A DNA stretch of 64,000 bases from Spirochaetia bacterium (GTDB taxonomy: Bacteria; Spirochaetota; Spirochaetia; SZUA-6; Bin103). How positions within the stretch are numbered: the stretch's first letter is position 1; every line of letters starts with the position of its first letter. The stretch covers positions 544,001 through 608,000 of the forward strand of contig OZ241863.1 in the NCBI GenBank assembly GCA_965203055.1, read 5' to 3'. This document shows, piece by piece, positions 11,657 to 59,758 of the stretch. The position numbers and the translations under genes were made by a program. The notes beneath the pieces are model-generated. The model was not told the DNA's origin and did no database searches. It worked only from the letters and a program-made list of their open reading frames with translations.

Positions 11657-11711
11657 CCCGTAAAGGACGCCGCGGCGCGGCGGCGGCCAGGTTCGCGCCG
11701 GCGGAGGTAAA

Positions 11712-11741
11712 GCGAGGCCGCGGTGTGGCCCGCGGCCTCGC
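11712..11741. terminator. 12-bp GC hairpin between convergent genes
   Basis: GCGAGGCCGCGG-N6-CCGCGGCCTCGC; no U tract. Confidence 0.45.
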
Positions 11742-11764
11742 ATCACTCCAACGTGCTCCCGTGG

Positions 11765-41583: not shown

Positions 41584-41628
41584 GGCAGGATCGGTGTACC
41601 GCGGCGGTCAAGCGCACCGCGGGATGGT

Positions 41629-42747
41629 TTACGTGGTTGGTTTCAACCCGGTCCGTGATTCGTTCCTGAACCAGTCATAGGTTGGATAGTGAATGGGGTT
41701 TCGAGGGTCGTTTGCTGCGTAGATCAGCATGGCGCGCAGCTCCCGCATGGTCCGATCGACGCGTGTTCGAAATGGTTCGGTGCGGCGGAGAAGTTCCTGA
41801 TTCAAGGCTTCATCTTCCCGGACTTCCGTAAGGTCCGCAGATTCGCTTCCGCGATAGCGGGCGCTGGGATCGGTCCGTATCTTCAACTTCGTAATGCGCA
41901 GGTGAACGGAACCGGCGCCGTGTGGTTTGGCGCCTCCCAGTTTGTGGCGCAACGGGCCGCGCAGAGTCACGCCTGCTTGATCGCTGGCGCGGCCGACGGC
42001 TGCCGCACTCAGCTCGACGGTACTCTGTTCTTCGAGTACCAGACAGTAGACGAGCAGGTCGAGTTCCTCCTCCCGCAGGTTCTCGAAATCCACGGTGAAG
42101 CGAAAACGGGTGCCCGGCGGTGCGGGTGTTACCGTCGCCGTCTGTCTTATATTCGGGTGCGGCCGCGTGAGCCGGTCCGCCTCGACGCGGTGATGATAGA
42201 GCTTACGCCGGTTATTTCTCGGATAGAAAGACTGGTGGGACCGTTTGGGCTGACCGACGGTAACAGGGTAAGCCGGCCACTGGACTGGCGCGAATGGCTC
42301 GGCCAGTTCGGCGTCGCTGAAGCGAACCAGTCCGGCAAAGGCGTTGCTGCCATCCAGATAGCCGAACATCCTGGCGACGACGTCGAGGCTCGAGTCGCGT
42401 CGCGCCATAGCCAGTTGATGCTGCCGGTCGACGCTCGCCTCACGGAACGGTACGGCGGCATTGCCTATGATTTCAGCCAGGGATCGGATGGCGCCTTTGA
42501 GAGACGTGGCCGGGAGATATGGCTGAGGGCCGCCGCGCCGGCCGCCGGCCGCGTTGCGTACTATATGGCTTACGAACTGCCCCTTACCGTCGCCGACGAA
42601 CAACGGCGTCAACGCTTCGAGTTCGCACCAGACACGGCCGGCGAGGCCATCAAGATGATGGTGATAGTGCGGAACGTCGTGCTCCACAGCTCGATCGCTG
42701 ACGGTGACCCAACGGTACGGATTCCAGAACCGTTCGCGTTCAGGCAT
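41629..42747 (-). CDS. type III-D terminal Cas7-group RAMP
   Basis: FWNPYRWV, LEALTPLFVG, PATSLKGAIRS, RKLYHH, LGGAKPHGAGSV. Confidence 0.85.
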   Translation of the reverse strand: MPERERFWNPYRWVTVSDRAVEHDVPHYHHHLDGLAGRVWCELEALTPLFVGDGKGQFVSHIVRNAAGGRRGGPQPYLPATSLKGAIRSLAEIIGNAAVPFREASVDRQHQLAMARRDSSLDVVARMFGYLDGSNAFAGLVRFSDAELAEPFAPVQWPAYPVTVGQPKRSHQSFYPRNNRRKLYHHRVEADRLTRPHPNIRQTATVTPAPPGTRFRFTVDFENLREEELDLLVYCLVLEEQSTVELSAAAVGRASDQAGVTLRGPLRHKLGGAKPHGAGSVHLRITKLKIRTDPSARYRGSESADLTEVREDEALNQELLRRTEPFRTRVDRTMRELRAMLIYAANDPRNPIHYPTYDWFRNESRTGLKPTT

Positions 42748-43336
42748 CGGGACCTCCGTCCGCGGGCTCCAGGTCGCACAGGCGCAGGAAATGCGGCTCG
42801 CCTACGTCGTCGCGCCACTGCTCGATGACCACCTTGACGTGGCGGCTGCCGCCGGCAATCGGATAGCGGAAGCGATGTGGAATACGCAACTCGATCCATT
42901 CGCCGGGGCTGGCTTCGGTTTGCTGTCCCCACAGGTAGTAGCGCTCCCGCTTCGGCTGCAGCCTGTCCAGGATGTCGGAACAGTCCGCCAGTGCACCGTC
43001 CGTCCAATTGGCGTCGCCGAGAAAGACGGTGCGCCAGCAGGTTTCGCCAAGCGACGCAATGACGCGCCAGCGCAATTCGCCGTCGGGCGCGAACAGTCTC
43101 CCCGCCGTGGAGCGGGACAGGCAACCGCCCGTTCGTTCTGCGATCGGCTCGCGGCCGGCGCCGCACCAATGGAGATCGCGTTCGACGCCGCGCCACCAGT
43201 CGAACGCCCAGCCATCGGCCGCCTCCAGCCAGATGCGGCGCGAAGCCGTGCCGTTGGGCGGCGGATCGAGATTCGTAATGAGATCCAGAAATCCGTTGCG
43301 CGTCAGGTCAGCCGCTCTCAAGCAAGCCACGGTCAT
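42740..43336 (-). CDS. csx19: Csx19
   Basis: RLFAPDGELRWR, YYLWGQ, ELRIP..FRYP, RLCDLE; position in a III-D operon. Confidence 0.75.
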   Translation of the reverse strand: MTVACLRAADLTRNGFLDLITNLDPPPNGTASRRIWLEAADGWAFDWWRGVERDLHWCGAGREPIAERTGGCLSRSTAGRLFAPDGELRWRVIASLGETCWRTVFLGDANWTDGALADCSDILDRLQPKRERYYLWGQQTEASPGEWIELRIPHRFRYPIAGGSRHVKVVIEQWRDDVGEPHFLRLCDLEPADGGPDA

Positions 43337-44301
43337 GCTCCCGCCCGCTGTCGAGGTTGCCGGTTGGGCGCCTGCCCTCCAGGTCCTCCGTGCCAGCGCA
43401 GGAATGCTTCGAACGCCGGCGTCAGTGACTGCAATCGCACGGACCAGTCGTCCAGAACGTACTCCTGGCGCAGACCGCGCGGCGCCGCCGCCGGCAACGC
43501 AACCGGATCCGCCGGCGTCCAGTCGTGCAGGCGGTATGCCTCCCGCTCCCCGGTCGTCGCCAGTTGCCCGATGCCGGCCAACGACTGCGCGGGATGCAGA
43601 TAGGCCAGCCGGAAAGACGCCACTTTGGCGCGTACTCGCCCCATGCCTCGGCTGCGCCCCGATCCCACGGCGATCATCTCGTCCTTCAGATCGGCGAGCA
43701 GCAGGTTGAGCCCCGCCAGTTGCCAGAGCTCGAAGTTGGTCAGCCGAATGCGCGCCTCGAACTTGCCCCCGACCACCGCCTGCAGGTCGAACAACACGCC
43801 TTTCACGGTGCCTCCCGTGAAGCGGTCTATGCCCACGCCGTTGCGAGACTCGGGCGTTGGAGCGCAGCCCGGCAGCGGGTACGCATCGCCGATGCTGAAC
43901 CGGCCCGCGAACTTCAACGAACCGAACAGGCGGCACGCTGCGCACGAGTCGGCGTACCTGGCGGACGCAGGATCAGCTTCCTCGCCGCGGGAACGATACC
44001 CGCAGCCGTAAGACTCTTTCTCGTCATCGACCGGAATCGAGATGTCGTTTCGCTTCGGGTCGTAGTATGGCAGGCAGACGCTCCCCGGCTGCAGAGTGCG
44101 GGCGATGCGCTCGAAGTGACTGCGCAGGACGCCTTTGAGCGACGAACCCGGTAGATAATAGACGCTCTCGCCGTTCAGAAAGGTCACGACCGGCACCATG
44201 TCGGCGTCACCGAGCGTCGCGTAGCCGCTCTTGACCAGTACCGGATCCACGGGTTCGATCTCAATCGTCACGTCTGCTTGGCACAGCCACTTTCGCAGCA
44301 T
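43333..44301 (-). CDS. csm3: Cas7-group RAMP (Csm3-like)
   Basis: PGSSLKGVLRS, CAACRLFGS, GIDRFTG, GSGRSRGMG. Confidence 0.85.
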   Translation of the reverse strand: MLRKWLCQADVTIEIEPVDPVLVKSGYATLGDADMVPVVTFLNGESVYYLPGSSLKGVLRSHFERIARTLQPGSVCLPYYDPKRNDISIPVDDEKESYGCGYRSRGEEADPASARYADSCAACRLFGSLKFAGRFSIGDAYPLPGCAPTPESRNGVGIDRFTGGTVKGVLFDLQAVVGGKFEARIRLTNFELWQLAGLNLLLADLKDEMIAVGSGRSRGMGRVRAKVASFRLAYLHPAQSLAGIGQLATTGEREAYRLHDWTPADPVALPAAAPRGLRQEYVLDDWSVRLQSLTPAFEAFLRWHGGPGGQAPNRQPRQRAGA

Positions 44302-44302
44302 G

Positions 44303-45130
44303 TCACTCCTCCTCCGGCGCCAGTCGCAGGCGGCGCTGAATATGATCGCCAAAGAAGCCTTCCCAATCGCCCAGGTCACTTAGGCGGTCGTCCGACGTGG
44401 TCGACGTCAGAAACGTGACCCGCTGCTCCGGGTCACTCAGATCGACCCCCAGCAGCTTGATTTCTTCTTCCAGATGGAACCGCCCGAGGCCGCGGCTGGT
44501 AAAGCCGCCGATGCTGCTACCCGAGCGCCACTCAAACAGCGCGGCGCCGAGCAGGGCCAAGTCCCGGTCATGCGGATTGTCGAGATCGATGCGCAGCTTG
44601 AAGCGGCTGCCGGGAGGAACCACCTCGTAATCGTACTTGAGGCCATCGGCCGCGGTCTGGCTGTCGCGATCGATCACCACTCCGTCACGCACCTGCACCA
44701 CGTTGGCCCACTCCTTCAGCATGCCGTCGCTCACCCGCAGGCGGCCGGCCTGGACCGGCGACCCGAACAGCTTGCACACATCGCAAGTGTGATCGTCGAT
44801 CCACCGCAGCCGCCCTTCCAGATCCTGAGACGCCTTTCGATATTCGTCACGCGCCTTCTGGTAGTATTTGACGTCACTCGTACAGTTCACGCCGCTTGCC
44901 TGATGGTCCAGCAGACAGGCGCTCAGGCCCAAGGCGTGCGCCAGCGTCTCGCAGGTGCTCCGCAGCCTCCCCTTGAGCGAAGACCCGGGCAGGACGGGCT
45001 GGCCGGCAGGGTCCAACACGACGCCCAGGTCGCTGCTCTCTCCCTCTCTGCCCGATCCGATCCGCCACGCCGTCTCGAACACCAAGTAGGCGGTGACACT
45101 GATCTTACGGCGCAACGCGAAGTCTCTCAT
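44303..45130 (-). CDS. csm3: Cas7-group RAMP (Csm3/Csx7-like)
   Basis: RIGSG..SD, PGSSLKGRLRS, CDVCKLFGS, IGGFTSRGLG. Confidence 0.85.
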   Translation of the reverse strand: MRDFALRRKISVTAYLVFETAWRIGSGREGESSDLGVVLDPAGQPVLPGSSLKGRLRSTCETLAHALGLSACLLDHQASGVNCTSDVKYYQKARDEYRKASQDLEGRLRWIDDHTCDVCKLFGSPVQAGRLRVSDGMLKEWANVVQVRDGVVIDRDSQTAADGLKYDYEVVPPGSRFKLRIDLDNPHDRDLALLGAALFEWRSGSSIGGFTSRGLGRFHLEEEIKLLGVDLSDPEQRVTFLTSTTSDDRLSDLGDWEGFFGDHIQRRLRLAPEEE

Positions 45131-45551
45131 ATTCCTCGACCCCCAACCGGTACAAGGCGTGCGTACAGAAGCGTTCGAAAAACGCCGGGATGTGAGTCTG
45201 TTCCCACGCCTCCCGCCGCTTGCGTTGGCGGCGCCTGGTCTCCGTACGAAGTTCAGGCGGTGCGTGCTTGTCCCCTTCCACACGGACGGACCACCCGTTA
45301 CGCGAATCGCAGAGTCTTTCCACTAGTTGCCAGAATTGGACTTCTGACTGCTTGTTCTTTCGTTCTGCCCGAGTACGCTGACGTTCGGCGAAGTTCTTGA
45401 CTTGCTCCGGTTGCTGACGAGCAATCTGCCGCAGACCGTAGATCTGCGCTGTTTTCACGGGGAACTTTCGGATCTCGCCAAGCAGCGTATCGAGTTGCTG
45501 ACGAGCCTGGTCGCGGTAAACAGTATCGGACAGCAGATCGACTATTGTCAT
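45105..45551 (-). CDS. putative small subunit (Cas11-like) 2
   Basis: 148 aa, helical, TAQIYGLRQIA; in operon. Confidence 0.6.
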   Translation of the reverse strand: MTIVDLLSDTVYRDQARQQLDTLLGEIRKFPVKTAQIYGLRQIARQQPEQVKNFAERQRTRAERKNKQSEVQFWQLVERLCDSRNGWSVRVEGDKHAPPELRTETRRRQRKRREAWEQTHIPAFFERFCTHALYRLGVEEYERLRVAP

Positions 45552-45958
45552 GCGCCGGCCTCCATCCGCTGCAATGCGAGTCGGTACAGGTATTCGCCGA
45601 CGACAGCCTGTACCCAGCCGCGGGCAAGCCGGAGGCGCAAAGCCATTCGGTCATATTCGTCCCCCGTAAGGTCCTGACTGAGCTTGCGCAACCGCGCAAG
45701 CTGCTTCAGCACGTCGTTACCGAGCGCCATCCACTTCTTGTCTCCCTTGCCCATCTGGTTCTTGACGAAGTCCTCGATGTCGGCGAACCGGGTGGCGGAG
45801 CAGGCGATCTGCTGCAGGTTGCGTACCTGCGTGCTGATCTTCCCCTTGTCCGAGCCGAATTCGTCAAAGAATCGCCTGCCAAGAGAGGAGAACTTCTCGT
45901 GGTTCTCGTCAAGGTAGCAGTCAACCTTGCCGATCAGGTCGGCGTTCAAGACGTGCAC
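45548..45958 (-). CDS. putative small subunit (Cas11/Csm2-like) 1
   Basis: STQVRNLQQIA...FVKNQMGK..W; in operon. Confidence 0.65.
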   Translation of the reverse strand: MHVLNADLIGKVDCYLDENHEKFSSLGRRFFDEFGSDKGKISTQVRNLQQIACSATRFADIEDFVKNQMGKGDKKWMALGNDVLKQLARLRKLSQDLTGDEYDRMALRLRLARGWVQAVVGEYLYRLALQRMEAGA

Positions 45959-47184
45959 GGCTGCGCCTCCTGCATGGAAAATCGACGGTGGAACTCATCG
46001 GACACCGACACTACGCCGAAACCCTCGTTGCGCCGCAAGCCGATGCCGTCCTCGACCAGCGCCGCGAGCCGCGGGATAAACGCGTCGCGTTGGCTTGGCG
46101 CGCCCTCGAATCGATAGACGTAGGCCGCGCCGCGCGCGACCGCCCACTCGTCCTGACGCGGCAGACCGTGAGCCGCGTTCCAGCCGCGGAGGCGCTCGTG
46201 CCGGGTGACCGCGGCGATCCAGCGTACCGTACCGCCAGAATCGAGGAGCCGGACCGCCCGATTCCGTAGCGGGAACGCAGTCGAGACAGGGGACATGTGC
46301 GGCAGCCATCCAACCATGTCCGCCGGGTCCAGGGAATAACGCAGAAACCGATCCACCATCACGGCGCCGGTCGGAAGTGAAATCGCGAAGAAGAAGCCGT
46401 CCGCCAAGTTCGTAATGGATAGCTTCCGCAGAAAGTTGCTCAGGTCGGCGTTCCATCGAACCCACCGATCGGCCTGCGAGCGCAGGTTCTCCGGCGCCGC
46501 CGGCTCTCCGAGCGTCACGTGCACGTCTCCGTAGCCGCGCGTGCGGGCATGGCCGACGGAAATGCGGCCCGCTTCATCCTGCAGGAGCCGCCGCAACGTG
46601 TCGAGCGCGTCGTCATCAGCCCGGAGCCAACCATGGAGATCGGCATCGTTTCCGGAGGGCGCCAGCGCTTCCAGGGTGTAGAAGATGGAGTCCGCGGCGG
46701 TGCCGGTCCGGCGGTCGATGCCCACGTGAGAGGCGACCTGCAGAGTGCTCGCCTTCTTACAAACGCGGCCGGACTCGTCGCGCCAGAAACCATCCTCCGC
46801 CTTCAAGTCCGCATCGCACTGCGCGCACTGCTGCCAGGCTTCCGCGCCGCCGGCCATCCGGCCCGCCGAGTAGTGTTGCGCGACGCGGAACCAGAGCAGG
46901 TCCACCAGGGCATGCTCAAGCCGTTCGTGCTTGCAGGAAGCCGCGGTCAGCGGGAATACCTGCGGAGCGGGGTCCAGCGGTCCGAAGCGGCAGGCGGCAT
47001 CGTTAAGAAACACCCGTTCGAAGGTCTCGTCAGTCCGCCCATGGCGCTGCAGGTAGAGCGATGCGAAGGCCCCGCGCACGAGAGTGCCCGCCACCGACCG
47101 GGCACTCCCAGAGCGTTCGGACTGCCGATCGCGCCTGATCGCCAACGGGGCAAGCAACCGCGCGGTGACAGAGACGATTTTCAT
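45946..47184 (-). CDS. csx10: Csx10 (Cas5/Cas7-like RAMP)
   Basis: GTLVRGA, GIDRRTG, GHARTRGYG, RGWN..GLPR, GIGLRRNEGFG. Confidence 0.85.
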   Translation of the reverse strand: MKIVSVTARLLAPLAIRRDRQSERSGSARSVAGTLVRGAFASLYLQRHGRTDETFERVFLNDAACRFGPLDPAPQVFPLTAASCKHERLEHALVDLLWFRVAQHYSAGRMAGGAEAWQQCAQCDADLKAEDGFWRDESGRVCKKASTLQVASHVGIDRRTGTAADSIFYTLEALAPSGNDADLHGWLRADDDALDTLRRLLQDEAGRISVGHARTRGYGDVHVTLGEPAAPENLRSQADRWVRWNADLSNFLRKLSITNLADGFFFAISLPTGAVMVDRFLRYSLDPADMVGWLPHMSPVSTAFPLRNRAVRLLDSGGTVRWIAAVTRHERLRGWNAAHGLPRQDEWAVARGAAYVYRFEGAPSQRDAFIPRLAALVEDGIGLRRNEGFGVVSVSDEFHRRFSMQEAQPCTS

Positions 47185-47924
47185 GCCATGTCTCCGCGCA
47201 GCTCGTCGATCCACTTGGCCCATTCGCCTCTCCATCTCGCGAAGCTGGTGAGGGAATACTCCGGGGTCTCGGTGGCGCCGTTCCAACGCAGTGACTCGAT
47301 ACGTACCTCGCACCTACCCAAACCGGTGCTCTTGTCGCCGCCCAGAGTATCCAGCGACAGCAGCCCAGCCACCAGAAGCGCATACTCGTAAGGGAACTCA
47401 TCATCGTCTTCTTGCGTCAGAACACCGCCGGGATGCCGGGCGCGGATGGCGCCTTGCAATTCGACATCCGCTTCGACCAGTTCCGTGGTAAACAAGTGTC
47501 GTTCCATGACCGTACCGGTGACACGATCGATGGCGGTGCGCGCGGCCACGGCCGGCGTTCCCTTCTCCGCCTTGCTTGGCACGGCGTTGGTCATGAACAC
47601 GCACTCACCTTGGTAGCGGCTGCCGAACAGTCGGTCGATCAGCAGCTTGGACTTGGCCAGTGGCCGGAAATGTTCCACGAGGCTCCGGTCGCCTTCTCCG
47701 GCGCCTGCATGCGGATCGACCGCTTCGAGGCCGAGCGCCAAGGCAAGCCGCTCGCACTGATGCCGCAGCACGCCCTTGACTTGCGAGCCCGGCACGAAAG
47801 GCGCTCCCGCTCCGCCGAGTCGCTGCTGCAAACGATCCACTGCGGCCGACCCGTAGCCGCTGCCGACGTGCCAGCGTCCGTTCCATGCGATGCGGTAACC
47901 GATGTCCAAGCGCTGCGGTTTCAA
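47181..47924 (-). CDS. csm3: Csm3 (Cas7) RAMP
   Basis: HVGSG...D, PGSQVKGVLR, IDRVTG, LGGDKSTGLG. Confidence 0.88.
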   Translation of the reverse strand: MKPQRLDIGYRIAWNGRWHVGSGYGSAAVDRLQQRLGGAGAPFVPGSQVKGVLRHQCERLALALGLEAVDPHAGAGEGDRSLVEHFRPLAKSKLLIDRLFGSRYQGECVFMTNAVPSKAEKGTPAVAARTAIDRVTGTVMERHLFTTELVEADVELQGAIRARHPGGVLTQEDDDEFPYEYALLVAGLLSLDTLGGDKSTGLGRCEVRIESLRWNGATETPEYSLTSFARWRGEWAKWIDELRGDMA

Positions 47925-49585
47925 CGTCCGCTCTCCTCCTGAGTATCCGGAAACAGATCATAGGCATCTACGATGTCGGCCACGCACAGCGACCGTCGGT
48001 TGCCGGACTGAAACCACGGAAAGCAGACCTCATGGCCGGCGGGCTGCAGACGTTTCACGGCGTTCCACAGGGCACGGCGTTGCGACGGTTCGGCGCCATG
48101 CCGGGCGCGGGCGAAGATTTCCCGGATGCGGCGTTCCGCATGCTGCTCCCGGGCGGTGAGGGCAGCGTCCAGGAGCTCGTGCAGCTTGCTGCGCGGAAAG
48201 CTGGCCCGGCGTAACTCCCGGACCGCGGCGCGCACCTCCTGCAACTTCAATCGCGTCAGTGGTCGCAGTGTTCTCGGCGCTTTGTCGGTGTGATAGGTAC
48301 CCCTTCTTACGTCCTGGAGATCGAGGCTGTTGGCTCCGGCTACGACGTGAAAATCGATGCGGGCGGTGTCACGCTTCCCGTTCATGGCGTTTGGGCTGCG
48401 CTTGGCATTCTGCAGCAAGGCCGTGGCCAGGTCCAAAGCCAGGTAGAACGGATACGTGCTCCGGACGATGGCAACGCCGCAGGAAATCGTGAAGCCGTTG
48501 TCGCCCCGGTGCTCCCGGAAGAAGCGCCGGGCGCCGTCATCCGGCACGGCTTCGATTTTTGCGCGAGTGAGCCGCTCGAACTCCGCGGTGACGTGGCATG
48601 CGAAGTCGAGGGCGCGGTCGGCCGGCAGGGCGACCAGCAGATCATCGCCGCCAAGCAGCAGGACGTCGGCCGGCAGCGGAGGCGGCTGGCGGCCCCGATC
48701 GATGGTGTCTCGGATACGCTTGACATCGGTGCTCATAACCGCATCGAGGCCGGAGAAACACGCCTCCCGGATGCTCTCGTCGACGACCTTGCTGAAGTGC
48801 CGGCACGTCTCCGAGCTGTCCAGCGCCTGCACGACCTTGCCCATCGCGTTCCCGTCGGCGTACACCACACCGACGTAGTTGCGCCATGACGACCGGTCGC
48901 CGATAGCCGTCATGTCCGCGCACCGCAGAGCATGCCATTCCTCCTGCGGAGGCCATGGGCCGGCGCTTGCCAGATGTTCCATCCACTTGGACCAGACCGC
49001 CCCGGCGCGCGATTCCCGCCCTTCGCACGCCTTCCGATGGCTCGCCTCGGACAACATGGCGGCCCCTTCCGCGCCATGGTCCGTGAAGCGCGCCGCCGGC
49101 AGATGCGAGGCGGACCGACACTCCATGATCGCGGGCAGGGTGGAGGCGCCGTAACGACCGCCGCCAAACCCCCGGCGGCAGCGCAACTGGAAGTGGGCCC
49201 GGTCCACCGCGCAGCGGTACCCGCCGTCCGGCAGTGGCGCGATGCCGTAGGCCGGCCGCACCTCGCCCCCGGTCCGGTCACGGACGTAGCGCACCATGCG
49301 CCGGCAGGCGGACTCCACCGTGTCGGCGTCGCACTGCCGCACGATGAACTGCGCCGAACCGCCATTGGCATAGATCGTCTCCAGGGCCGCGGTTTCGAGG
49401 TGCTCATCGAGCACCCGCTCCATTTCGTGTCGATTCAACCGATCCAGCCAGGCGCTGGCCCCGCGCACCTCATTCAATCGATCCGTGCCGAACACGTAAC
49501 TCTTGATCGACGGGACATCGATCTGAACCAGGAATGTCCCGGTCTTTCCGGGATCACCGGCTTGGTTCACGGCTTCTCTCGACAT
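47921..49585 (-). CDS. cas10: Cas10 with intact Palm GGDD and no N-terminal HD domain
   Basis: IDVPSIKSYVF, YANGG, YADGNAMG, LLGGDDLL, ISCGVAI; start uncertain (49585 or 49627). Confidence 0.9.
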   Translation of the reverse strand: MSREAVNQAGDPGKTGTFLVQIDVPSIKSYVFGTDRLNEVRGASAWLDRLNRHEMERVLDEHLETAALETIYANGGSAQFIVRQCDADTVESACRRMVRYVRDRTGGEVRPAYGIAPLPDGGYRCAVDRAHFQLRCRRGFGGGRYGASTLPAIMECRSASHLPAARFTDHGAEGAAMLSEASHRKACEGRESRAGAVWSKWMEHLASAGPWPPQEEWHALRCADMTAIGDRSSWRNYVGVVYADGNAMGKVVQALDSSETCRHFSKVVDESIREACFSGLDAVMSTDVKRIRDTIDRGRQPPPLPADVLLLGGDDLLVALPADRALDFACHVTAEFERLTRAKIEAVPDDGARRFFREHRGDNGFTISCGVAIVRSTYPFYLALDLATALLQNAKRSPNAMNGKRDTARIDFHVVAGANSLDLQDVRRGTYHTDKAPRTLRPLTRLKLQEVRAAVRELRRASFPRSKLHELLDAALTAREQHAERRIREIFARARHGAEPSQRRALWNAVKRLQPAGHEVCFPWFQSGNRRSLCVADIVDAYDLFPDTQEESGR

Positions 49586-49669
49586 AGCATGGCAGTTCGA
49601 TCCAGCGACTCGATCATACCGCCACACTCCACAAGGTGCAACGCCGTCATCTGCGTGATCTTCCCTGCG

Positions 49670-50896
49670 TCAGTCAGCAAGGCAGATTCTGAAAGCATCG
49701 TCCAGGGCGTCCCGTAGCCGACCGGGATCATCGAGTATTCCGCGGGACCTCCGTTGCGGACGGGTCGTGTGCGCAAGGGAGTTGCGGATGTGTTGGAGAT
49801 TCAGGTGGGCGAGCTGCCGCTCGCCGGCGCAGTTGGTTGTCAGCTCTATCGTGGCCGCCTTTCGAAGTTCTTCATCATATCGATATTGGTCGACAGGCCT
49901 TCCGTTACTCTGATTCTGACACCACCGGTTGATGCAGGCTTCCCAGCCCAACATCGCCGCGCGCACGAAGTCGTGGCGGTTCAGGTATTGGTAAGCGAGC
50001 TCCCGCTGCCGTTGCCACGGCTGGCCTTGTTTCACCCACCGCAGCCGCTTCTCCAACTCCTCCTTGAACAGACCGGACGCTCCACCGAGCGGTGCGGCGC
50101 GCTCCGACAGATAGGACAGGAACGTGCGCACTCTGTTCTCGGCGGCAGGCACGTTGAGAATGCGTTCGTAGAACGACGCGTTCGTCAGGCACCTGGCCTT
50201 ATCATACGGCACGCCGTCTGCGACGAGCAGCGGTTCGAACATCCCCAGGTCCCCGGTCGCGTCATACCGTTCCAGCGCCGCCACCCAACGCCTGACGCGG
50301 ACCAGTCCATCCAGCTTGAGCACCGGCGTGATTCCTTCCCGCGTCATGTCCACAGCGCCGTACCACAGGTCCTTGACCTCGAGACTACGGACGCGCTCCA
50401 GCATGAAGGCCGACAGGAAACCCACCATGGCGAGATGGCGGAACCCGTGCGTAAGGTCGAAACTCACGGTGCCGTCCGGTACCACCTTCGGATCGGCGAT
50501 GGTGGCAAGGATGCCGTACTGCTCACCAAGAGACTCCCCGTACGGTATGAGACGCGGTAGTACGTCGCAACGAGTCCGCTCTTTCATGAGCGGCGTTACG
50601 CGGTCAAGGAGGTCCTGGTCGACGGCAGACTTGGGCTCGGCCTCCAGCAGCTCGATACGCGCTTCCTCGTACTCGTCGCCCTCCTGCGTCGCCACGTGCT
50701 CGACCAATGCGCCCCACTGACTGCCGCGCGTGCCAAGTATCACGATCGCATCCGGCTGCAGATGCTCTGCCAACGCCAGTCCGAAGAACTCGGTTTCCTT
50801 CGTGGTTCCGTCGGGAAACAGATAGTTGGCCTTGCGATATGGCGTTTCCTTTGTATCCCTGCCTCGCCCAAGGAACGTTACCACCGTGTGCTTCAT
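49670..50896 (-). CDS. csx1: Csx1/TM1812-type CARF-HEPN ribonuclease
   Basis: TFLGRG, LGTRGSQW, FDLTHGFRH CARF motif; HEPN RNSLAH. Confidence 0.88.
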   Translation of the reverse strand: MKHTVVTFLGRGRDTKETPYRKANYLFPDGTTKETEFFGLALAEHLQPDAIVILGTRGSQWGALVEHVATQEGDEYEEARIELLEAEPKSAVDQDLLDRVTPLMKERTRCDVLPRLIPYGESLGEQYGILATIADPKVVPDGTVSFDLTHGFRHLAMVGFLSAFMLERVRSLEVKDLWYGAVDMTREGITPVLKLDGLVRVRRWVAALERYDATGDLGMFEPLLVADGVPYDKARCLTNASFYERILNVPAAENRVRTFLSYLSERAAPLGGASGLFKEELEKRLRWVKQGQPWQRQRELAYQYLNRHDFVRAAMLGWEACINRWCQNQSNGRPVDQYRYDEELRKAATIELTTNCAGERQLAHLNLQHIRNSLAHTTRPQRRSRGILDDPGRLRDALDDAFRICLAD

Positions 50897-50964
50897 TGCG
50901 CCCTCCAATGTGGGTTTGAGTCCGTCCCGCCTGTTTGGACTTCGACGGTAGCACGATAATTCTA

Positions 50965-50980
50965 AGCAATTTCCGTGCCA
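50965..50980 (-). promoter_or_regulatory. sigma54 -24/-12 promoter of the csx1-cas10 operon
   Basis: TGGCACG-GAAA-TTGCT on the minus strand, ~70 bp before the csx1 ATG. Confidence 0.85.
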
Positions 50981-51002
50981 TCGTCGAGAGTCTACCGGCG
51001 AA

Positions 51003-51047
51003 GCCTGCACAGAACAGCGGAGTCGCCACTCGGTAGGTCGCTTTCAT
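51003..51047 (-). pseudogene. 5' stub resembling cmr1
   Basis: MKATYRVATPLFCAG. Confidence 0.5.
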
Positions 51048-51261
51048 GGCCGCGCGCTCGCCACCGCCGGATCAGCGTGCCCGACCTTTACCATAGGCCG
51101 ACTCGCCCTGGATTGCAACGGGTGTCGCAATAAATCTTCCATTCATGTAACGTATGTTACGATCACGGCCAACCTGTTCCGGCCACTGAGCAATGGCACG
51201 GCTGCAGGCTCTTCATGCGGTGCCGCCGGCGTGGCTGCGGAATTGGGAAAGGAGGACGACG

Positions 51262-52761
51262 ATGCGTAGCATCCTGATCAGTTGGATCGGCAATACGGAC
51301 CTGAAAGCGTCGCAGGGAGGCGCGGAGGGTATCGGACCGGTGGCCAAGGCCGTGGAGGACGGTACGTACGACGACGCCTTTCTGCTCACCACGTATGGCG
51401 ACGAGGCGGAACGCTACCGAGAGTGGCTCGAAGGGCGCGCGAGCGGGATCAGTCTCCACCTGCTGCACGAGCGGCTCACCAGCCCCACGGCCTTCGGCGA
51501 GGTCTACCCAGCCGCGGTCCGCGCCTGCGAACGGGCGCGCGCGGCCGCCGGTCCGGGCGCCGCGCTCACGTTCCATCTGAGCCCCGGCACGCCGGCCATG
51601 TCCGCGGTGTGGATCATCCTGGCCAAGACGCGCTTCGAGGCAACGATCATCGAGTCGTCGAAAGAGCACGGCGTCCGGGAGGTCTCCGTCCCCTTCGACA
51701 TCTCGGCTGAGTTTCTCGCCGATCTACTGCGGCAGCCGGACCGGGATCTGGAACGTCTGAGCGCCGGGCTGCCGCCGCAGGCGCCCGCCTTCGACGAGAT
51801 CGTCCATCGCAGCCCGGAGATGCGGCGCGTCATTTTGCTCGCCCGGCGGGTCGCGCTGCACTCGGTGCCGGTTCTGATCGAGGGAGAGTCCGGCACGGGC
51901 AAGGAGCTGATGGCGCGGGCCATCCACCACTCGAGCCCACGACGGGAGGAACGGTTCATCTCGGTCAACTGCGGCGCAATACCTGAGAATCTGGTTGAGT
52001 CGGAGTTGTTCGGCCATGAGAAGGGCGCGTTCACCGGTGCCGTCAAGATGCGAAAGGGGCACTTCGAAGCCGCGAGTGGCGGAACGCTATTTTTGGATGA
52101 GATCGGGGAGCTGCCGCTTTCGGCGCAGACGAAGCTGTTGCGCGTCCTGCAGGAAGGGACGGTCCAGCGTGTCGGCAGCAGCGACACGCGTTCAGTAGAC
52201 GTGCGCGTCATCGCGGCGACCAACCGTACCCTGACGGAGGAGGTCGCACGCGGCCGGTTCCGCGAAGACCTCTTCTATCGTCTGGCGGTGGCGGTGCTCA
52301 AGCTGCCGCCGCTCCGCGAGCGCGGCGGCGACGTCGGGCCCATGACGGATCATCTTCTCGTCCAAATCAACCGCGAGTTGGCGAAAGCTCTTGGTTATCG
52401 GCGCAAAAGCCTTTCCGCTTCGGCAAGGAATCTTCTTACTCGGCACCCGTGGCCGGGCAACGTACGCGAGTTGCGCAACACGCTGATGCGCGCCGCGCTC
52501 TGGTCGGCGGGCGACATCATCACGGGGGACGACCTGCGCGGTGCGCTGCTATCGGCGCTCGGCGACCGCAAGCGGGACGTGTGGGACCGTCCCTTGGGCG
52601 GCGGTTTCAGCATCGAGGCGCTGTTGGCGGAGATCAGGCGCCATTATCTGAGCCGCGCGATGGAGAAGGCCGGCGACAACAAGACCAGGGCAGCCAAACT
52701 ACTGGGACTCCGCAGCCATCAGACGCTCAGCAACTGGCTGAAACAGCACGCGGCGGAATGA
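51262..52761 (+). CDS. sigma54 enhancer-binding protein with N-terminal CARF (RtcR-like) domain
   Basis: AGGAGG RBS; ILISWIGNTD...FHLSPGTPAM; GESGTGKE, GAFTGA, FLDEIGE, WPGNVREL; Fis-type HTH NKTRAAKLLG. Confidence 0.88.
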   Translation: MRSILISWIGNTDLKASQGGAEGIGPVAKAVEDGTYDDAFLLTTYGDEAERYREWLEGRASGISLHLLHERLTSPTAFGEVYPAAVRACERARAAAGPGAALTFHLSPGTPAMSAVWIILAKTRFEATIIESSKEHGVREVSVPFDISAEFLADLLRQPDRDLERLSAGLPPQAPAFDEIVHRSPEMRRVILLARRVALHSVPVLIEGESGTGKELMARAIHHSSPRREERFISVNCGAIPENLVESELFGHEKGAFTGAVKMRKGHFEAASGGTLFLDEIGELPLSAQTKLLRVLQEGTVQRVGSSDTRSVDVRVIAATNRTLTEEVARGRFREDLFYRLAVAVLKLPPLRERGGDVGPMTDHLLVQINRELAKALGYRRKSLSASARNLLTRHPWPGNVRELRNTLMRAALWSAGDIITGDDLRGALLSALGDRKRDVWDRPLGGGFSIEALLAEIRRHYLSRAMEKAGDNKTRAAKLLGLRSHQTLSNWLKQHAAE

Positions 52762-52777
52762 TGGCACGATTATTGCT
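52762..52777 (+). promoter_or_regulatory. sigma54 -24/-12 promoter of the csb2-cas1-cas2 operon
   Basis: TGGCACG-ATTA-TTGCT immediately after the regulator stop. Confidence 0.85.
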
Positions 52778-52833
52778 TATCAGGTATTGAGGGCCGAGTT
52801 CGGAACGAGCCGTCAGCCCCGGAGGAAAGAATC

Positions 52834-52914
52834 ATGGCGCAGGACGTAGAGAAACTACTGACGACGACTAGCACCCACGCCAACCCGCCTCGCGGCCCGC
52901 GGAGACGCGCGTGA
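52834..52914 (+). CDS. 26-aa leader ORF or gene stub
   Basis: GGAGG RBS; MAQDVEKLLTTTSTHANPPRGPRRRA; TGA overlaps the next GTG. Confidence 0.4.
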   Translation: MAQDVEKLLTTTSTHANPPRGPRRRA

Positions 52915-53642
52915 CCGGCGGGCCGGCGCGCGCGGCGCGGATGCCGGATTGCGTGCGCTTTCGTCTCACCGGCGACCGGCTCCCGACTGCGCGCCTGGGG
53001 CATCAGGTCGCCGAACGCGCCCGCCGCGCCGCGCTCGGCCGGGCACGCATGATGTACGGACCGGACGGCATACCCGCGGCGCTGTCGGGCCACGGCGCCC
53101 AGGCCGGCGCGCCGGCCCTGGAGCACCGGCACGCCTTCTGGCTGCCGGAGGATGCCGACGGCGACGGGCGCATCGACCATCTCACCGTGCACGCCCGGGC
53201 GATGGACGGGACGGCGCTGGCGGCGCTGTTGGCCGCGGACATCGCCGTCCATGCACGACGCGAGCACTGGCGCGCAGCCTCGGACTGGATCGGCCGCCAT
53301 GACGAGCCGGACATCCCCACGGCCCTGCTGGAGGTCGCGGTCGAATGGGTCTCCGTCGCTCCCTACTACCGGCCGTGGCACGCGAAGCGCGGCTTCTCGC
53401 AGGACGACATGATCCGCCGCGAATGCGCCGCGCGCGGTCTGCCTCCGGTGACGGAGGTGGAGTTGATCGGCTCCGGCGCCGCCCCGCCGCGCTGGCGCTG
53501 GCGCGAAAGCGCGCCGAAGGGGAACGGCCGGGGCACGGCGTGGCGGCTGGTCTTCGCCGCGCCCGTGCGCGGGCCGCTGGCGTTCGGCTACGGCTGTCAC
53601 TTCGGCCTCGGCCTGTTCGCCCCGGAGTCGGGCGATGCGTGA
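52911..53642 (+). CDS. csb2: Csb2 C-terminal (Cas6-like) half, likely crRNA-processing enzyme
   Basis: LSGH, HRHAFWLPED, IDHLTV, W.SVAPY, GPLAFGYGCHFGLGLF G-loop. Confidence 0.8.
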   Translation: MTGGPARAARMPDCVRFRLTGDRLPTARLGHQVAERARRAALGRARMMYGPDGIPAALSGHGAQAGAPALEHRHAFWLPEDADGDGRIDHLTVHARAMDGTALAALLAADIAVHARREHWRAASDWIGRHDEPDIPTALLEVAVEWVSVAPYYRPWHAKRGFSQDDMIRRECAARGLPPVTEVELIGSGAAPPRWRWRESAPKGNGRGTAWRLVFAAPVRGPLAFGYGCHFGLGLFAPESGDA

Positions 53643-54678
53643 CGCCGACCGGCGCGACCGCGCCGCGGCCATCCGCCATCCGGTCTACGTCAACAACCAG
53701 GGCGCGCGCATCGGCCTGACCGGTCACACCCTCGAGGTGGCGATGCTGGACAAGCGCCGGCGCCGGCACCTGCGCCTGGACGAAATGTCCGAAATGACCG
53801 TCATGGGCAACATCCAGGTAACCACGCCTGCGCTGCAGGAACTGATGCGGCGCGGCATCCCGGTGTGCTGGACGACCTCCTCCGGCTGGTTCCTGGGCGC
53901 CACTTCCGGCTTCGGCCACGGCGATGGCGCGTTGCGCGCGGAACAGCACGCCGCCGCCGCCGACCCCGCGCGCCGCGTCGCCTTTGCCCGCACTTGGGTG
54001 GCCGCCAAGATCCGGAACTGCCGCACCCTCCTGCGCCGCAACGGGAGCGGCCGCGAGGCGAAGATCGCAGTGCGTCAACTGACGGAACTCGTGGAAAACG
54101 CGGAACGCACCGCCGATCTGGACAAGCTGCGCGGCTACGAGGGCGCCGCGGCCGCCGCCTACTTCAGGACCTTCCCGGCCATGCTGCGCGGGCGGGCGGC
54201 CTGGGCCGCCGAACGGTACCGGGGCCGCAACCGCCGGCCGCCGCGCGATCCGGTCAACGCCGCGCTCTCCTTCGCCTACGCCGTCCAGACCCGCTCCTGG
54301 AGCGTCGCCGTCACCGCCGCCGGACTCGATCTGTTCACCGGGTTCCTGCACGGCTTCCGGCATGGTCGTCCCGCGTTGGCGCTCGACCTGATGGAACCGG
54401 CGCGGCCGCGGATCGCGGATTCCGCGGTCCTGCGCATATTCAATTCGGGGATGCTGAAAGCCGGCTACATGGAACAGGAGGGCAACGCAGTCCTGCTCGG
54501 CGAGCAGGGCCGGCGCGTCCTGCTGGACGCACTGGAAGACCGGCTGGACGAGTCGAGCCTCCACGACCGCCTGGGGCGGGCCATCATCTACCGCGACCTG
54601 CCGTCCATCGAAGCCGCCCGCCTCGCGCGCGCTCTGCGCCGCAACGACGAGCCGCCGGCGCAGATGAGCTGGCGGTAG
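53635..54678 (+). CDS. cas1: Cas1 (no Cas4 or RT fusion)
   Basis: GNIQVTTPAL, LRGYEGAAAAAYF, RNRRPPRDPVNAALSFAY, GRPALALDLMEP. Confidence 0.93.
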   Translation: MRDADRRDRAAAIRHPVYVNNQGARIGLTGHTLEVAMLDKRRRRHLRLDEMSEMTVMGNIQVTTPALQELMRRGIPVCWTTSSGWFLGATSGFGHGDGALRAEQHAAAADPARRVAFARTWVAAKIRNCRTLLRRNGSGREAKIAVRQLTELVENAERTADLDKLRGYEGAAAAAYFRTFPAMLRGRAAWAAERYRGRNRRPPRDPVNAALSFAYAVQTRSWSVAVTAAGLDLFTGFLHGFRHGRPALALDLMEPARPRIADSAVLRIFNSGMLKAGYMEQEGNAVLLGEQGRRVLLDALEDRLDESSLHDRLGRAIIYRDLPSIEAARLARALRRNDEPPAQMSWR

Positions 54679-54693
54679 CAGCGGAGCGTCCTC

Positions 54694-54969
54694 ATGCCGC
54701 CTGCCGGAAGGGACTACCTGGTAGCCTACGACGTTTCGTCCCCCAAGCGGTGGCGCCGGGTCTACCGGCTGCTGCACGGTTACGGCGACTGGGTTCAGCT
54801 TTCCGTGTTCCGGTGCCGGCTGGACCCCCGACGCCGCCGCCGGATGGAGCAGGAGCTGCGCGCCGTGATGGAGACCGCCGAAGACCGGCTGCTCATCGCG
54901 CGGCTGGAGGAGGACGGACAAACGGCCGCCGACCGGGCGAAGTCGGATCGACGGGCATTGATCGTGTAA
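54694..54969 (+). CDS. cas2: Cas2
   Basis: YLVAYDVS..RWRRV, GYGDWVQLSVF. Confidence 0.93.
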   Translation: MPPAGRDYLVAYDVSSPKRWRRVYRLLHGYGDWVQLSVFRCRLDPRRRRRMEQELRAVMETAEDRLLIARLEEDGQTAADRAKSDRRALIV

Positions 54970-55008
54970 CCGCCGCGCGGCGTGCTATGCTGGCCGGCGT
55001 CTGGAGGC

Positions 55009-55609
55009 GTGGTCGAATGCCTCGGGTACTACTTCCGCAACCACCCCGACGTGTACGTGTCCGGCAGCCTGCTGATCTACTACGAGGAAGGGACGCGGGC
55101 GAGGGTGGCGCCGGACGTGTTCGTGGTGTTCGGCGCGGGCAAAGAAGAACGCTCGTCGTACCTGCTGTGGAAGGAGGCCAAGGCGCCCGACTTCGTGCTG
55201 GAGATCGCGTCGCCGGGGACGTGGCGGGACGATCAGACCTGGAAGCGGGAGTTGTACCGCCGGCTGGGGGTGGGTGAGTACTGGCAGTACGATCCGACGC
55301 GGAACTACCTGCAGCCGCCGCTGCAGGGGTTGGAGTTGGAGGTTCTACGATCCGCAGACCGGAGAGGAGCTGCGGAACTTGGCGGAGGCCGAAGACGGAC
55401 GCCGGGAGGCGGAGGCCCGCGTGGAGCAGGAAGCGGCCGCCCGCCGCCGGGAGGCAGCCGCCCGCCAGGCCGCAGAAGCCCGCGTCCATCAGGAGGCGGC
55501 CGCCCGCCAGGCCGCAGAGACCAGCGCCCACCAGGAAGCGGCTGCCCGCCAAGCGGCCGAAGCGCGTTTGGCCGAACTCGAGGCATTGTTACGCCGCCGA
55601 TCCGACTGA
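55009..55609 (+). pseudogene. Uma2-family endonuclease remnant
   Basis: VAPDVFVVFG, APDFVLEIASP, EYWQYDP; frameshift at ~55343 to RFYDPQTGE plus EAAARQAAE repeats; 5' end missing. Confidence 0.75.
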
Positions 55610-55639
55610 CGCTACCTACGTTTTTGGAAGTGCCCGCCC

Positions 55640-55897
55640 TGTGGTGTTGCCAAATAACCGGATGTGGCATAGGGTAGCCGTCAAGCAGGCGTCTTTGACA
55701 GAGCGACCGAGCCGGAGGGGTGTGCTGCTGATCCTTCCGGATTCCGCTCGCGTCGCACGAAAGCGTTGCCGCCAAGGGAGATATGGCAGATAATCCTGAG
55801 TGAACGTCCAGTTGAGGGGTCCGATTGCTCGTCATGGCTGCCTCCGCTCGCGGGACTTGAGATTTGTGCTTGCAGATCATGGGGTTGCGGGACGGCA
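55640..55897 (+). promoter_or_regulatory. CRISPR leader
   Basis: Non-coding stretch between the cas2/Uma2 region and the first intact repeat; degenerate repeats lie at the far end. Confidence 0.6.
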
Positions 55898-57497
55898 GTC
55901 ACCAGCCGCGCGAAACGCGCGGCCCTATTGAAACACACGCTTGGCCTTGGTCAGGTTGACCCGGATGAATGATGTCACCAGCCGCGCGAAACGCGCGGCC
56001 CTATTGAAACCAGGCGGAACGCGATGCAATCGTCATCCCCGCGTGGAACGGTCACCAGCCGCGCGAAACGCGCGGCCCTATTGAAACTCATGGCGTCGGG
56101 GAGAGTGGCGTCCGCCCGCCAGGAAAGTCACCAGCCGCGCGAAACGCGCGGCCCTATTGAAACTTGATCGCCTTGTCGATTGCTTCTACGACATCATCCT
56201 GGTCACCAGCCGCGCGAAACGCGCGGCCCTATTGAAACCTCCTTGACCTGCTCATCCGTGATCAACCCCATGTTGTCACCAGCCGCGCGAAACGCGCGGC
56301 CCTATTGAAACTTTAGAGACAGAAAAAGAACCTGAATAAACTACATACCGTCACCAGCCGCGCGAAACGCGCGGCCCTATTGAAACACGAATCTTGTTCG
56401 CCTTATAGGCCCGCTGAGTGGAAGTCACCAGCCGCGCGAAACGCGCGGCCCTATTGAAACACTGCGAATGGGAGACGATGTCTTCATCGACCTGATCGGG
56501 TCACCAGCCGCGCGAAACGCGCGGCCCTATTGAAACGCTTCGGCGATCTTGCCGTTGCCGAGAAACGTCTTGGCGGTCACCAGCCGCGCGAAACGCGCGG
56601 CCCTATTGAAACTTGTACTCTGCAAGCTGATCTAAGATCTCTGTTCGACGTCACCAGCCGCGCGAAACGCGCGGCCCTATTGAAACCCGACAGGAACGTT
56701 CGTCTCATTGAACTTGGCCGCCGAGTCACCAGCCGCGCGAAACGCGCGGCCCTATTGAAACGTGGGGACGCCGATCCACACTATGGCGCGGCAGGCGCGG
56801 GTCACCAGCCGCGCGAAACGCGCGGCCCTATTGAAACCTCCTTGAACGCTTTCGGTATACGTATGGGCAATACGAGTCACCAGCCGCGCGAAACGCGCGG
56901 CCCTATTGAAACGGTATCGGAAGTTTCGCCGCCCCCGGTGGGAGGTCACCAGCCGCGCGAAACGCGCGGCTCTATTGAACTCCTTCGGCGCCGCAAGGAC
57001 TCCGAACGGATTCTTGAGGTCACCAGCCGCGCGAAACGCGCGGCCCTATTGAAACCTGGGCGCGGTCACGATCACGTGCTCGCCGCTATGCGGTCACCAG
57101 CCGCGCGAAACGCGCGGCTCTATTGAAACTCCTTCGGCGCCGCAAGGACTCCGAACGGATTCTTGAGGTCACCAGCCGTGCGAAACGCGCGGCCCTATTG
57201 AAACCTGGGCGCGGTCACGATCACGTGCTCGCCGCTATGCGGTCACCAGCCGCGCGAAACGCGCGGCTCTATTGAAACTCCTTCGGCGCCGCAAGGACTC
57301 CGAACGGATTCTTGAGGTCACTAGCCGCGCGAAACGCGCGGCCCTATTGAAACCTGGGCGCGGTCACGATCACGTGCTCGCCGTTATGCGGTCACCAGCC
57401 GCGCGAAACGCGCGGCTCTATTGAAACGCCGCCCGCGCCGCGCACACGCACGCCCACCCGGCCGCCTGTCACCAGCCGCGCGAAACGCGCGGCCCTA
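55898..57497 (+). CRISPR. CRISPR array: 22 repeats (last truncated) and 21 spacers of 32-40 bp
   Basis: 37-bp repeat GTCACCAGCCGCGCGAAACGCGCGGCCCTATTGAAAC; GCCGCGCG-AAA-CGCGCGGC hairpin; ATTGAAAC handle. Confidence 0.98.
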
Positions 57498-58575
57498 CAG
57501 GCGTCGATGAGCGATAGAGGTAAAGATCGAGAATGTCGACTGGACATGGAATGTCAATCTCAAAATCTGGCCTGACAAATGATCAAGAAGCTCTGGAGGC
57601 AGGTAGAGATGTTGCAGTGTATGAGCGTTGAGATGATCCAAGAGATGGCAAAGCATCGCCGCCTTTTGGAGGTCTACCGACACATGGTTTCTCGACTACT
57701 ACGAGAAGGTTGGTCAGAGATGGTGGATCACATTCTTTGTCATCGTGGCAGCCTTCTTAATGGATTGTAGGAGGTTGCCAAGAATTGGACAAGATGACAC
57801 GCGAAGTATTAGCGAATGCGTATCCAATCCCGATGTCATTGCCAGTGTGAAGAGGCGGAGGAGGTGAGCGAGGCATTGTTTTATGCAAGGGAAGAGCCTA
57901 TCTACAAGAGTCTTCTTACCAAAGAGGATCTCAAGGAGCTCCGGAAACAGTATGCAAAGAATGTTGAGAGGTGCAAGAAGGAAGCAGAAAGGCCGGATGT
58001 GAAGGAGTTTTGGGGATGGGTAGCCTTGGGAATAATCTTCCTTGTGGCCTGCTACTTCTTGGCAGGGTGTTCAGAGCTCATGCCATACCAGGGTTGAGAC
58101 TGAAGTCTACAAGAGTGATGCACGCTGTGAATGCGTACTTCACTATGGCGCTACAGATGGTACCTTTGTAGGATGTGGGAGGGTTGTTCAGATCGAGACT
58201 ACAAGAGGGTCGGAGTATGGGAGTGAGGCGTATGGAGCAAGGGCGTTTGTGAGTAACGGATATGTTCGCATAGTAGGCAACACTCGAATAGTGTTATGGG
58301 TGAATACCTCTTGTTAGTCGAACCCCTTAGGAGTAGATGATGGAACGTAGAGTCAGGCTTGCGATAGACACTTTTGGGTATTGGCGATTGCCCTTCCGTC
58401 TATCGGTATATTGATTGCGGTCTTGGATTTTAACTTTGAGAATAACGGGCCTTTCGGAGGGGTAGACCTTAAGGGGGATGTCTGTTAGCTCAGGAGGATT
58501 TCCTGGGCCAATCGACGTACCCTAAGACTTGTAGGAAAGACGTTGGTCTGCGTGAATAGGAATCAGAAATATACT
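57498..58575 (+). other. lower-GC foreign (phage-like) segment with short ORFs
   Basis: Abrupt compositional shift; ORFs 57579..57770 and 57816..58097 (C-terminal TM); several AGGAG motifs. Confidence 0.55.
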
Positions 58576-58579
58576 ACGA

Positions 58580-59628: not shown

Positions 59629-59758
59629 TCTTTTTCTCGTCCGGCCCAATCCTACCCACAACCCGCAGCAACGTTCAACCAGAGCATCGAGCGAGCGTCC
59701 CGGACGGAGCCGCGCCGCGCTTGACGCCGGTGCGGTTCCGGTACATTCTGATTCACGG

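Follow-up and report, generated by a model that had tools for sequence, protein, structure and literature searches.

A putative restriction-type sigma-54 defence switch with a type III CRISPR-Cas locus as its cargo in a Spirochaetia bacterium

A CARF-domain sigma-54 activator between two divergent cas operons

The window analysed here, a 64,000-nt stretch of a Spirochaetia bacterium genome (assembly GCA_965203055.1, contig OZ241863.1, positions 544,001 to 608,000 of the forward strand), contains a type III CRISPR-Cas locus with a gene for a sigma-54 activator of CARF-AAA+-helix-turn-helix (HTH) architecture at its centre (51262..52761, plus strand; 499 aa, ATG at 51262). An initial annotation of the same DNA had sited this regulator between two divergent cas operons and proposed an infection-triggered amplifier, in which cyclic oligoadenylates (cOA) made by Cas10, or RNA cleavage products of Csx1, would switch on sigma-54 transcription of both. 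Profile matches to the flanking genes bore out the siting, and the motifs, sites and related loci described below argue that a well-conserved sigma-54 control circuit on this type III CRISPR locus is real, as judged from sequence.

The CARF domain of the regulator covers residues ~1–147 and is followed by an AAA+ domain (~176–430) and a Fis-type HTH. The open reading frame (ORF) and all catalytic motifs were intact: FHLSPGTPAM (residues 104–113), Walker A GESGTGKE (208–215), GAFTGA (255–260), Walker B LFLDEIGE (276–283) and GNVRELRN (399–406) could all be read, in agreement with the intact GAFTGA core and Fis HTH described initially. Pfam recognised Sigma54_activat (E = 1.8e-72), had no match within residues 1–175 and placed HTH_8 under its cut-off (E = 7.8e-4, 19.6 bits against 22), with C-terminal helices predicted in the structural model. 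The best PADLOC profile was RtcR_PspF2 (PDLC01995; E = 5e-194, 644 bits, residues 3–497), with lesser scores for PspF1 (244 bits) and RtcR (186 bits, E = 2e-55). Assignment to RtcR proper was rejected, as the PspF2 profile scored best and NF038308 reached 342.8 bits against a cut-off of 650. No rtcBA operon, the target of RtcR, was present near the regulator, and rtcB (PF01139) was not found in the host genome, which is 96% complete (the control matched 10 of 14 genomes). Restriction-type genes had no match in positions 41001–61000 of the window, where cas genes stand instead, a departure from the usual PspF2 context. The names PspF1 and PspF2 reportedly come from Makarova 2020.

To the left of the regulator, on the minus strand, lie csx1 (49670..50896), cas10 (47921..49627) and further effector genes (41629..47924). 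The 408-aa Csx1 is a CARF-HEPN RNase of the TM1812 family (TIGR02221 above cut-off; CARF2_HEPN E = 1.5e-123) with the motifs DLTHG and RNSLAH (R-X4-H), of which R371, N372 and H376 were invariant in all seven relatives aligned. Cas10 was identified by profile matches and aligns with the solved Cas10 8s9t (E = 2e-12); its cyclase motifs are intact, with YADGNxMG at residue 256 and the GGDD reported initially at residues 326–329, and it has no HD dipeptide. The remaining effector genes are four Cas7/Csm3-like genes, csx10, csm2, csx19 and one unassigned 148-aa ORF, csx10 and csx19 scoring under their TIGR cut-offs. With a Cas10 lacking HD, Csx10, Csx19 and several Cas7 proteins, the operon is type III-D on predicted gene content.

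To the right, on the plus strand, a 26-codon remnant ORF (52834..52914) has its stop overlapping the start of a cas6-like gene (52911..53642), which corresponds to the C-terminal half of type I-G Csb2 (TIGR02165 positions 252–492; PADLOC Cas56g E = 2.5e-43). Profile matches identified a I-G-like cas1 and cas2 next (53635..54969), followed by a Uma2 gene and the CRISPR array (55898..57504, plus strand; 22 repeats of 37 nt and 21 spacers), the only array in the genome with that repeat. The cas6-like gene stands alone as the C-terminal half of Csb2, and relatives pair the same cas6-cas1-cas2 module with a III-B and two III-D operons.

Several further observations concern this locus. Spacer 3 (about 56087–56125) agrees in 32 of 33 nt with the minus strand of the host chromosome at G000 C1:2975013-2975045, a stretch that lies upstream of a minus-strand gene; were the array read from the plus strand, its guide would fail to base-pair with minus-strand RNA of that region. 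The last spacers (56980–57430) repeat a single pair in tandem (15/17/19 and 16/18/20). A gene next to the type III operon (40708–41583, plus strand) encodes a 291-aa protein, also found at L019:328-1194 and L081:1657-2523 (84–98% identical), which had no Pfam, NCBIfam or PADLOC match. The Atlas places it near clusters with MYG1_exonuc in 17% of their members; a DHHD motif is present, and the protein may be an NrN-like signal-degrading phosphodiesterase, no corA gene having been seen.

Sigma-54 promoters and enhancer-like palindromes

Scanning for the sigma-54 consensus TGGCACR-N4-TTGCW revealed exact −24/−12 sites on both sides of the regulator gene, one on the minus strand at 50965..50980, 69 bp before the csx1 start, and one on the plus strand at 52762..52777, abutting the regulator stop codon. 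Two exact sites in the window compare with 0.02 expected by chance, and none of 100 shuffles contained two; the entire 4.56-Mb genome has four, two of which are the pair flanking the regulator. The gene behind another exact site resembles, in our reading of its translation, one for a urea ABC binding protein; what is presumably an amtB/glnK-like pair, again judged from translations, follows a near-consensus site. The rpoN gene, which the amplifier proposed initially presupposes, was found in the genome with a score above cut-off. From their positions, we infer that the left site drives csx1-cas10-III-D and the right site cas6-cas1-cas2. The 500 bp preceding the array, and those preceding the gene for the 291-aa protein, contained no sigma-54 site.

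The promoter at the stop codon is not peculiar to this genome. Among 66 homologous loci with a full-length regulator gene (nine duplicate or spurious loci having been dropped), 43 had a site with at most one mismatch at the regulator stop codon, whereas none of the 66 had one in a control stretch 700 bp upstream, which makes the predicted site at this position a family trait. Four of the regulators found are cas-linked: that of the window, that of L035 with the same III-D layout, that of L019 at a III-B locus with a CARF-RelE effector and that of L034 at another III-D locus, with a reverse transcriptase. At all four, cas6-cas1-cas2 and the array follow the regulator gene, an arrangement kept across proteins 73–86% identical. 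In G021, the same III-D locus retains both promoters and the palindromes described below, and has no regulator gene there. Counterparts of the left promoter were present in L035 and G021. Before the regulator gene itself, a probable decayed sigma-54 site in the window (51195..51210, plus strand) has kept its −24 element and lost the −12, whereas the site is intact in L019, L034 and L035. Overall, a sigma-54 site was found on the adaptation side (cas6-cas1-cas2-array) in five of five related loci and on the effector side in three of five, all of one III-D lineage; the predicted wiring is asymmetric between the two sides. Five type III loci of the bacterial family without the cassette had no strict site in 40 kb each, and no site with up to one mismatch before the nine operon heads tested.

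Two tandem pairs of palindromic, enhancer-like sites accompany the promoters. The upstream pair (51127..51160, sites at 51127 and 51147, 20-bp spacing) lies 147–167 bp from the left promoter and is conserved in the window, L019, L034, L035 and G021. The second pair (52403..52436, sites at 52403 and 52423) is inside the regulator coding sequence at codons ~381–392, 339–359 bp from the right promoter; third-codon GC there was 0.33 below the gene means (standard deviation 0.06; 30 homologs), suggesting synonymous constraint. With a matrix built solely from sites inside the regulator genes of 18 non-CRISPR loci, the upstream pair ranked third and the intragenic pair fourth in the 4.56-Mb genome, the upstream rank being the more independent test; ranks 1 and 2 were AT-rich stretches elsewhere. 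The matrix scan also showed a dispersed AT-rich palindromic repeat of ~40 nt in at least 17 copies (e.g. C1:1939230, 3269160 and 4317345). At many restriction-linked loci, a similar palindrome pair stands just before the regulator start, which suggests autorepression.

These data bear on the possibility that the regulator has become a mere passenger or a relic in decay, its sites being leftovers of an ancestral cassette while sigma-70 or another activator drives the cas operons. The lost regulator gene of G021, the decayed autoregulatory site in the window and the effector operons of L019 and L034, without a sigma-54 site at the heads tested, would all fit such decay, as would a candidate sigma-70-like site, weak (9/12; shuffle mean 0.3), overlapping the left promoter. 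Both promoters are nevertheless perfect, both enhancer pairs are in the genome's top four, the ORF and catalytic motifs are intact and the arrangement persists among proteins 73–86% identical; we regard a relic as highly improbable. The sigma-70-like site could have another role, since sigma-54 promoters are usually tight: a feedback loop would need basal expression, for which this site is a candidate source.

Restriction-linked relatives and the CARF ligand pocket

In the 24 genomes of the bacterial family, the N-terminal domain of the regulator was matched (E ≤ 0.001) in 15, two of them weakly, and Cas10 in nine. Across 83 homologous loci of at least 6 kb (nine dropped; the last 20 may hold duplicates and some are biased towards the motifs of the query), cas genes were matched in four and HsdR, HsdM or methylase-ATPase genes in 57. 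Linkage to cas was tested by tblastn with the family's own cas proteins within ~10 kb, which distant or far-off cas genes can escape. Of the homologs, whose co-occurrence with cas10 the initial annotation had proposed to survey, four copies lie beside Cas10, within a family that is mostly restriction-linked. In a tree of 92 rows, built by a quick method with a midpoint root and without a formal test of clades, the four cas-linked proteins grouped with 10 that lack context in one clade (Shimodaira–Hasegawa-like approximate likelihood ratio test, SH-aLRT, 100; stem 0.32), which is surrounded by restriction-linked copies from the same family. Because of this nesting, the tree points to a single co-option of a restriction-operon switch by a CRISPR locus. 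Among loci sampled from three other phyla, no PspF2 gene linked to cas was observed, and independent origins there are unconfirmed. The PspF2 family comprises 1,934 cluster representatives at E ≤ 0.001, which may include more distant CARF relatives. G021 carries one restriction-linked paralog elsewhere, and its regulator-less III-D locus is consistent with DNA sites and a signal shared with that paralog.

Other features of the related loci were recorded as well. Small membrane-protein genes of DUF1232 and glycine-zipper type stand directly behind sigma-54 sites (L019:9712-10005 and 11576-11755; L034:8211-8426); the window and G021 retain no more than remnants of them. Loci L098-L103 (G020, G009, G002) are hybrids with type I-G-like genes, which from their translations we take to be cas3, cas7 and csb2, co-oriented with type III-A or III-B operons.

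The regulator might instead control both operons through some other signal of its family, such as a modified nucleotide, a by-product of DNA restriction or a partner protein; infection or stress in general would then induce CRISPR, and neither Cas10 nor Csx1 would feed back on it. Most restriction-linked loci are without an obvious RNase in the subset of neighbour genes scanned, the wiring of the adaptation side in every related locus would suit a spacer-independent trigger, and the DUF1232 and glycine-zipper genes appear to be co-transcribed in relatives. Partner proteins do regulate RtcR (PMC9650030). Nevertheless, no conserved partner gene was seen across loci and the motifs of the CARF pocket hardly vary, which an oligonucleotide ligand would lead one to expect, and we consider a signal of this kind quite unlikely.

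An AlphaFold2 model of residues 1–175 (predicted local distance difference test, pLDDT, 87.6; 34 sequences) has a CARF fold, as the initial annotation had anticipated for the N-terminus. Its best Foldseek match was EiCsm6 (6tug; E = 1.6e-7), and the top 22 rows of structural matches were all CRISPR-associated CARF-type entries. Superposition gave a Z-score of 17.7 with EiCsm6 (root-mean-square deviation 6.4, 160 residues aligned) and 16.1 with StCsm6' (2.3, 135 residues). In the full-length model (pLDDT 86.5; predicted TM-score, pTM, 0.57), CARF, AAA+ and C-terminal helical domains are joined by flexible linkers. Sequence searches of the PDB with two homolog alignments and one single homolog returned no CARF protein; a mixed profile alone gave one, aligning the N-terminal domain to EiCsm6 at E = 2.2e-5.

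In that profile alignment, N11, T12, T44 and T110 of the regulator correspond to the EiCsm6 ligand residues N10, T11, T39 and T114. The motif GNTD (G10-N11-T12-D13) is identical in the two proteins, and S-x-G-T-P is common to both. At the position of EiCsm6 Gln116, the regulator has Ala (A112). Thr44, aligned with the adenine contact Thr39, is specific to the CRISPR clade, its place being taken by Asp in 89% of sisters.

Such a pocket raises the possibility that the CRISPR clade has retuned it and binds a Cas10 product directly (cyclic tetra-adenylate, cA4; cyclic hexa-adenylate, cA6; or A2>p, which ring nucleases produce), giving direct positive feedback. The two closest structures, EiCsm6 and StCsm6', and the alignment of G10-N11-T12-D13 and T110 with EiCsm6 N10, T11 and T114 (PMC7101355) speak for this, as do the pocket-near clade changes T44 and K29 with the long stem, the Cas10 adjoining all four linked loci, and the precedent of archaeal Csa3, a CARF transcription factor able to bind cA4 (PMC8844856). 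Other features of the same pocket count against it. Alanine in place of Gln116 cuts the cA6 response of EiCsm6 (PMC7101355), N11 is replaced by His in 25 of 37 clade members, and Thr44 is also found in one restriction-linked subfamily. The core motifs are the same in the restriction-linked sisters, that is, at loci without a cyclase, and the 20 diagnostic changes of the CRISPR clade are spread evenly (CARF 7, AAA 7, C-terminal 6), with no concentration in the CARF domain. Csx1 would imply cA4, yet the closest fold is of cA6 type, and PMC11229360 reports that cA6-type Csm6 never occurs beside cA4 effectors. Moreover, cOA bound E. coli RtcR very weakly, and neither cA4 nor cA6 activated it (PMC9650030). 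Since the pocket motifs match those of restriction-linked sisters and E. coli RtcR does not respond to cA4 or cA6, direct cOA sensing is unsupported here, and we judge it unlikely.

The motif SGTP[QH]M characterises one PspF2 subfamily (L128-L132, L160, L161, L163), of which L128 matches both Pfam RtcR and Csm6_CARF. Most of its copies precede type I restriction genes and have no cas neighbours; a Csm6-like pocket thus exists without a cyclase.

Proposed circuit and comparison with known systems

The locus as a whole is best explained, with a chance that we place marginally above even, as a restriction-type defence switch that has acquired type III CRISPR cargo, responds to a cyclic-phosphate RNA ligand and provides indirect feedback. 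The switch would comprise the PspF2 gene, the palindromes upstream of and inside it, the sigma-54 promoter at its stop and the divergent sigma-54 promoter, and its restriction-operon cargo would have been swapped for the type III CRISPR locus in the host's bacterial family. In the resting state, by extension from RtcR, the CARF domain would hold the AAA+ domain off; the ligand-bound regulator would oligomerise on the enhancers and open both promoters, raising transcription of csx1-cas10-III-D and of cas6-cas1-cas2. Control of both promoters by the regulator is very probable. The likeliest ligand would be, as for RtcR, an RNA with a 2',3'-cyclic-phosphate end, a class to which we give roughly an even chance. 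Such ends may arise from any infection-linked RNA damage and, here, from cA4-activated Csx1 too, and CRISPR-independent RNA damage could prime spacer acquisition.

Work on related proteins bears on this proposal. In activators of this type, the AAA+ domain is repressed by CARF until a ligand binds. The CARF domain of Salmonella RtcR binds tRNA halves with a terminal cyclic phosphate (PMC7790460), cleavage by HEPN RNases yields cyclic-phosphate ends (PMC11090510) and Csx1-type effectors are activated by cA4 (PMC11229360), so that cA4 is likely the signal of this locus. Because Csx1 can make cyclic-phosphate ends, Cas10 signalling would feed back indirectly, through Csx1. The amplifier put forward initially gains a CARF fold, an intact activator, rpoN and sigma-54 sites on both operons, with conserved enhancer-like sites; of its two candidate signals, cOA is disfavoured by the restriction-linked family, the unchanged core pocket motifs, the Ala for Gln116 and the lack of E. 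coli RtcR activation by cA4 or cA6, and the Csx1 products fit better.

A number of points weigh against this explanation. The case for the ligand is an analogy to RtcR, which is only distantly related; E. coli RtcR, which needs RtcA/RtcB, was not activated in vitro by tRNA fragments alone (PMC9650030), and no rtcB was detected in the host genome. Among solved structures, cA6-binding Csm6 comes nearest to the N-terminal domain by fold and by motifs, and the CRISPR clade combines its long stem with Thr at the adenine-contact position. On the DNA side, the intragenic pair is farther from its promoter than the upstream sites of the clade (56–170 bp), a scan gave no clear IHF site (two 2-mismatch matches only), with one HU/IHF-family gene found in the genome, and the genome encodes three other sigma-54 activators.

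Infection-triggered rises in cas and spacer-acquisition expression are poorly known in bacteria, and this locus offers a complete testable circuit with a regulator, two promoters, predicted binding sites and an adjoining signal-producing system. Since a target RNA of choice can trigger Cas10 and Csx1, the locus also gives useful access to the ligand of the widespread PspF2 family. If the direct cOA response were true, it would be a new output of type III signalling, in which Cas10 signalling switches on its own interference, processing and acquisition genes through a retuned restriction-operon sensor.

Literature searches, in which most subscription journals were outside coverage, found no published account of PspF2-CRISPR wiring. 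The supplement of PMC11229360, the main survey of type III effectors, has no PspF, Sigma54 or PF00158 entry, transcription regulators having been excluded there, and the available text of PMC10013973 mentions RpoN solely in its references. Makarova 2014 (PMC4012209) excepts the RtcR-like family from CRISPR linkage, and its PspF-neighbourhood table lists nothing under cas, CRISPR, RAMP, csm or cmr. A Dethiosulfovibrio sigma-54 gene near a III-B locus in a table of the same paper was not equated with the regulator, as it is not flagged as CARF.

Several known systems share parts of the proposed circuit. RtcR, the rtcBA activator, is likewise a CARF-gated sigma-54 enhancer-binding protein and the only experimentally studied relative found; it differs in family score and in its rtcBA target, no rtcBA lying near the regulator and no rtcB having been found in the genome. 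Csa3 is likewise a CARF transcription factor over adaptation and interference genes, of archaeal type I-A systems (PMC10013973), but is a winged-HTH protein with no AAA+ domain or sigma-54, and its DNA binding in vitro is cA4-independent (PMC8844856). CalpL-CalpT-CalpS likewise converts a type III signal into a bacterial transcriptional response, but there a SAVED-Lon protease frees a sigma factor from its anti-sigma factor, with no CARF domain, ATPase or enhancer (PMC11229360). Csm6 (CARF1), the closest solved fold, shares GNTD and S-x-G-T-P with the regulator but is an RNase effector and differs at Gln116. Closest of all is PspF2 at restriction and CoCoNuT operons (PMC4012209, PMC11090510), which has the same full-length family, domain order and predicted sigma-54 defence activation, and for which a feedback loop through HEPN-made cyclic-phosphate ends was proposed earlier (PMC11090510). 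Earlier publications cover both the family and the role predicted for it at restriction operons; what differs here is the cargo, a type III CRISPR locus.

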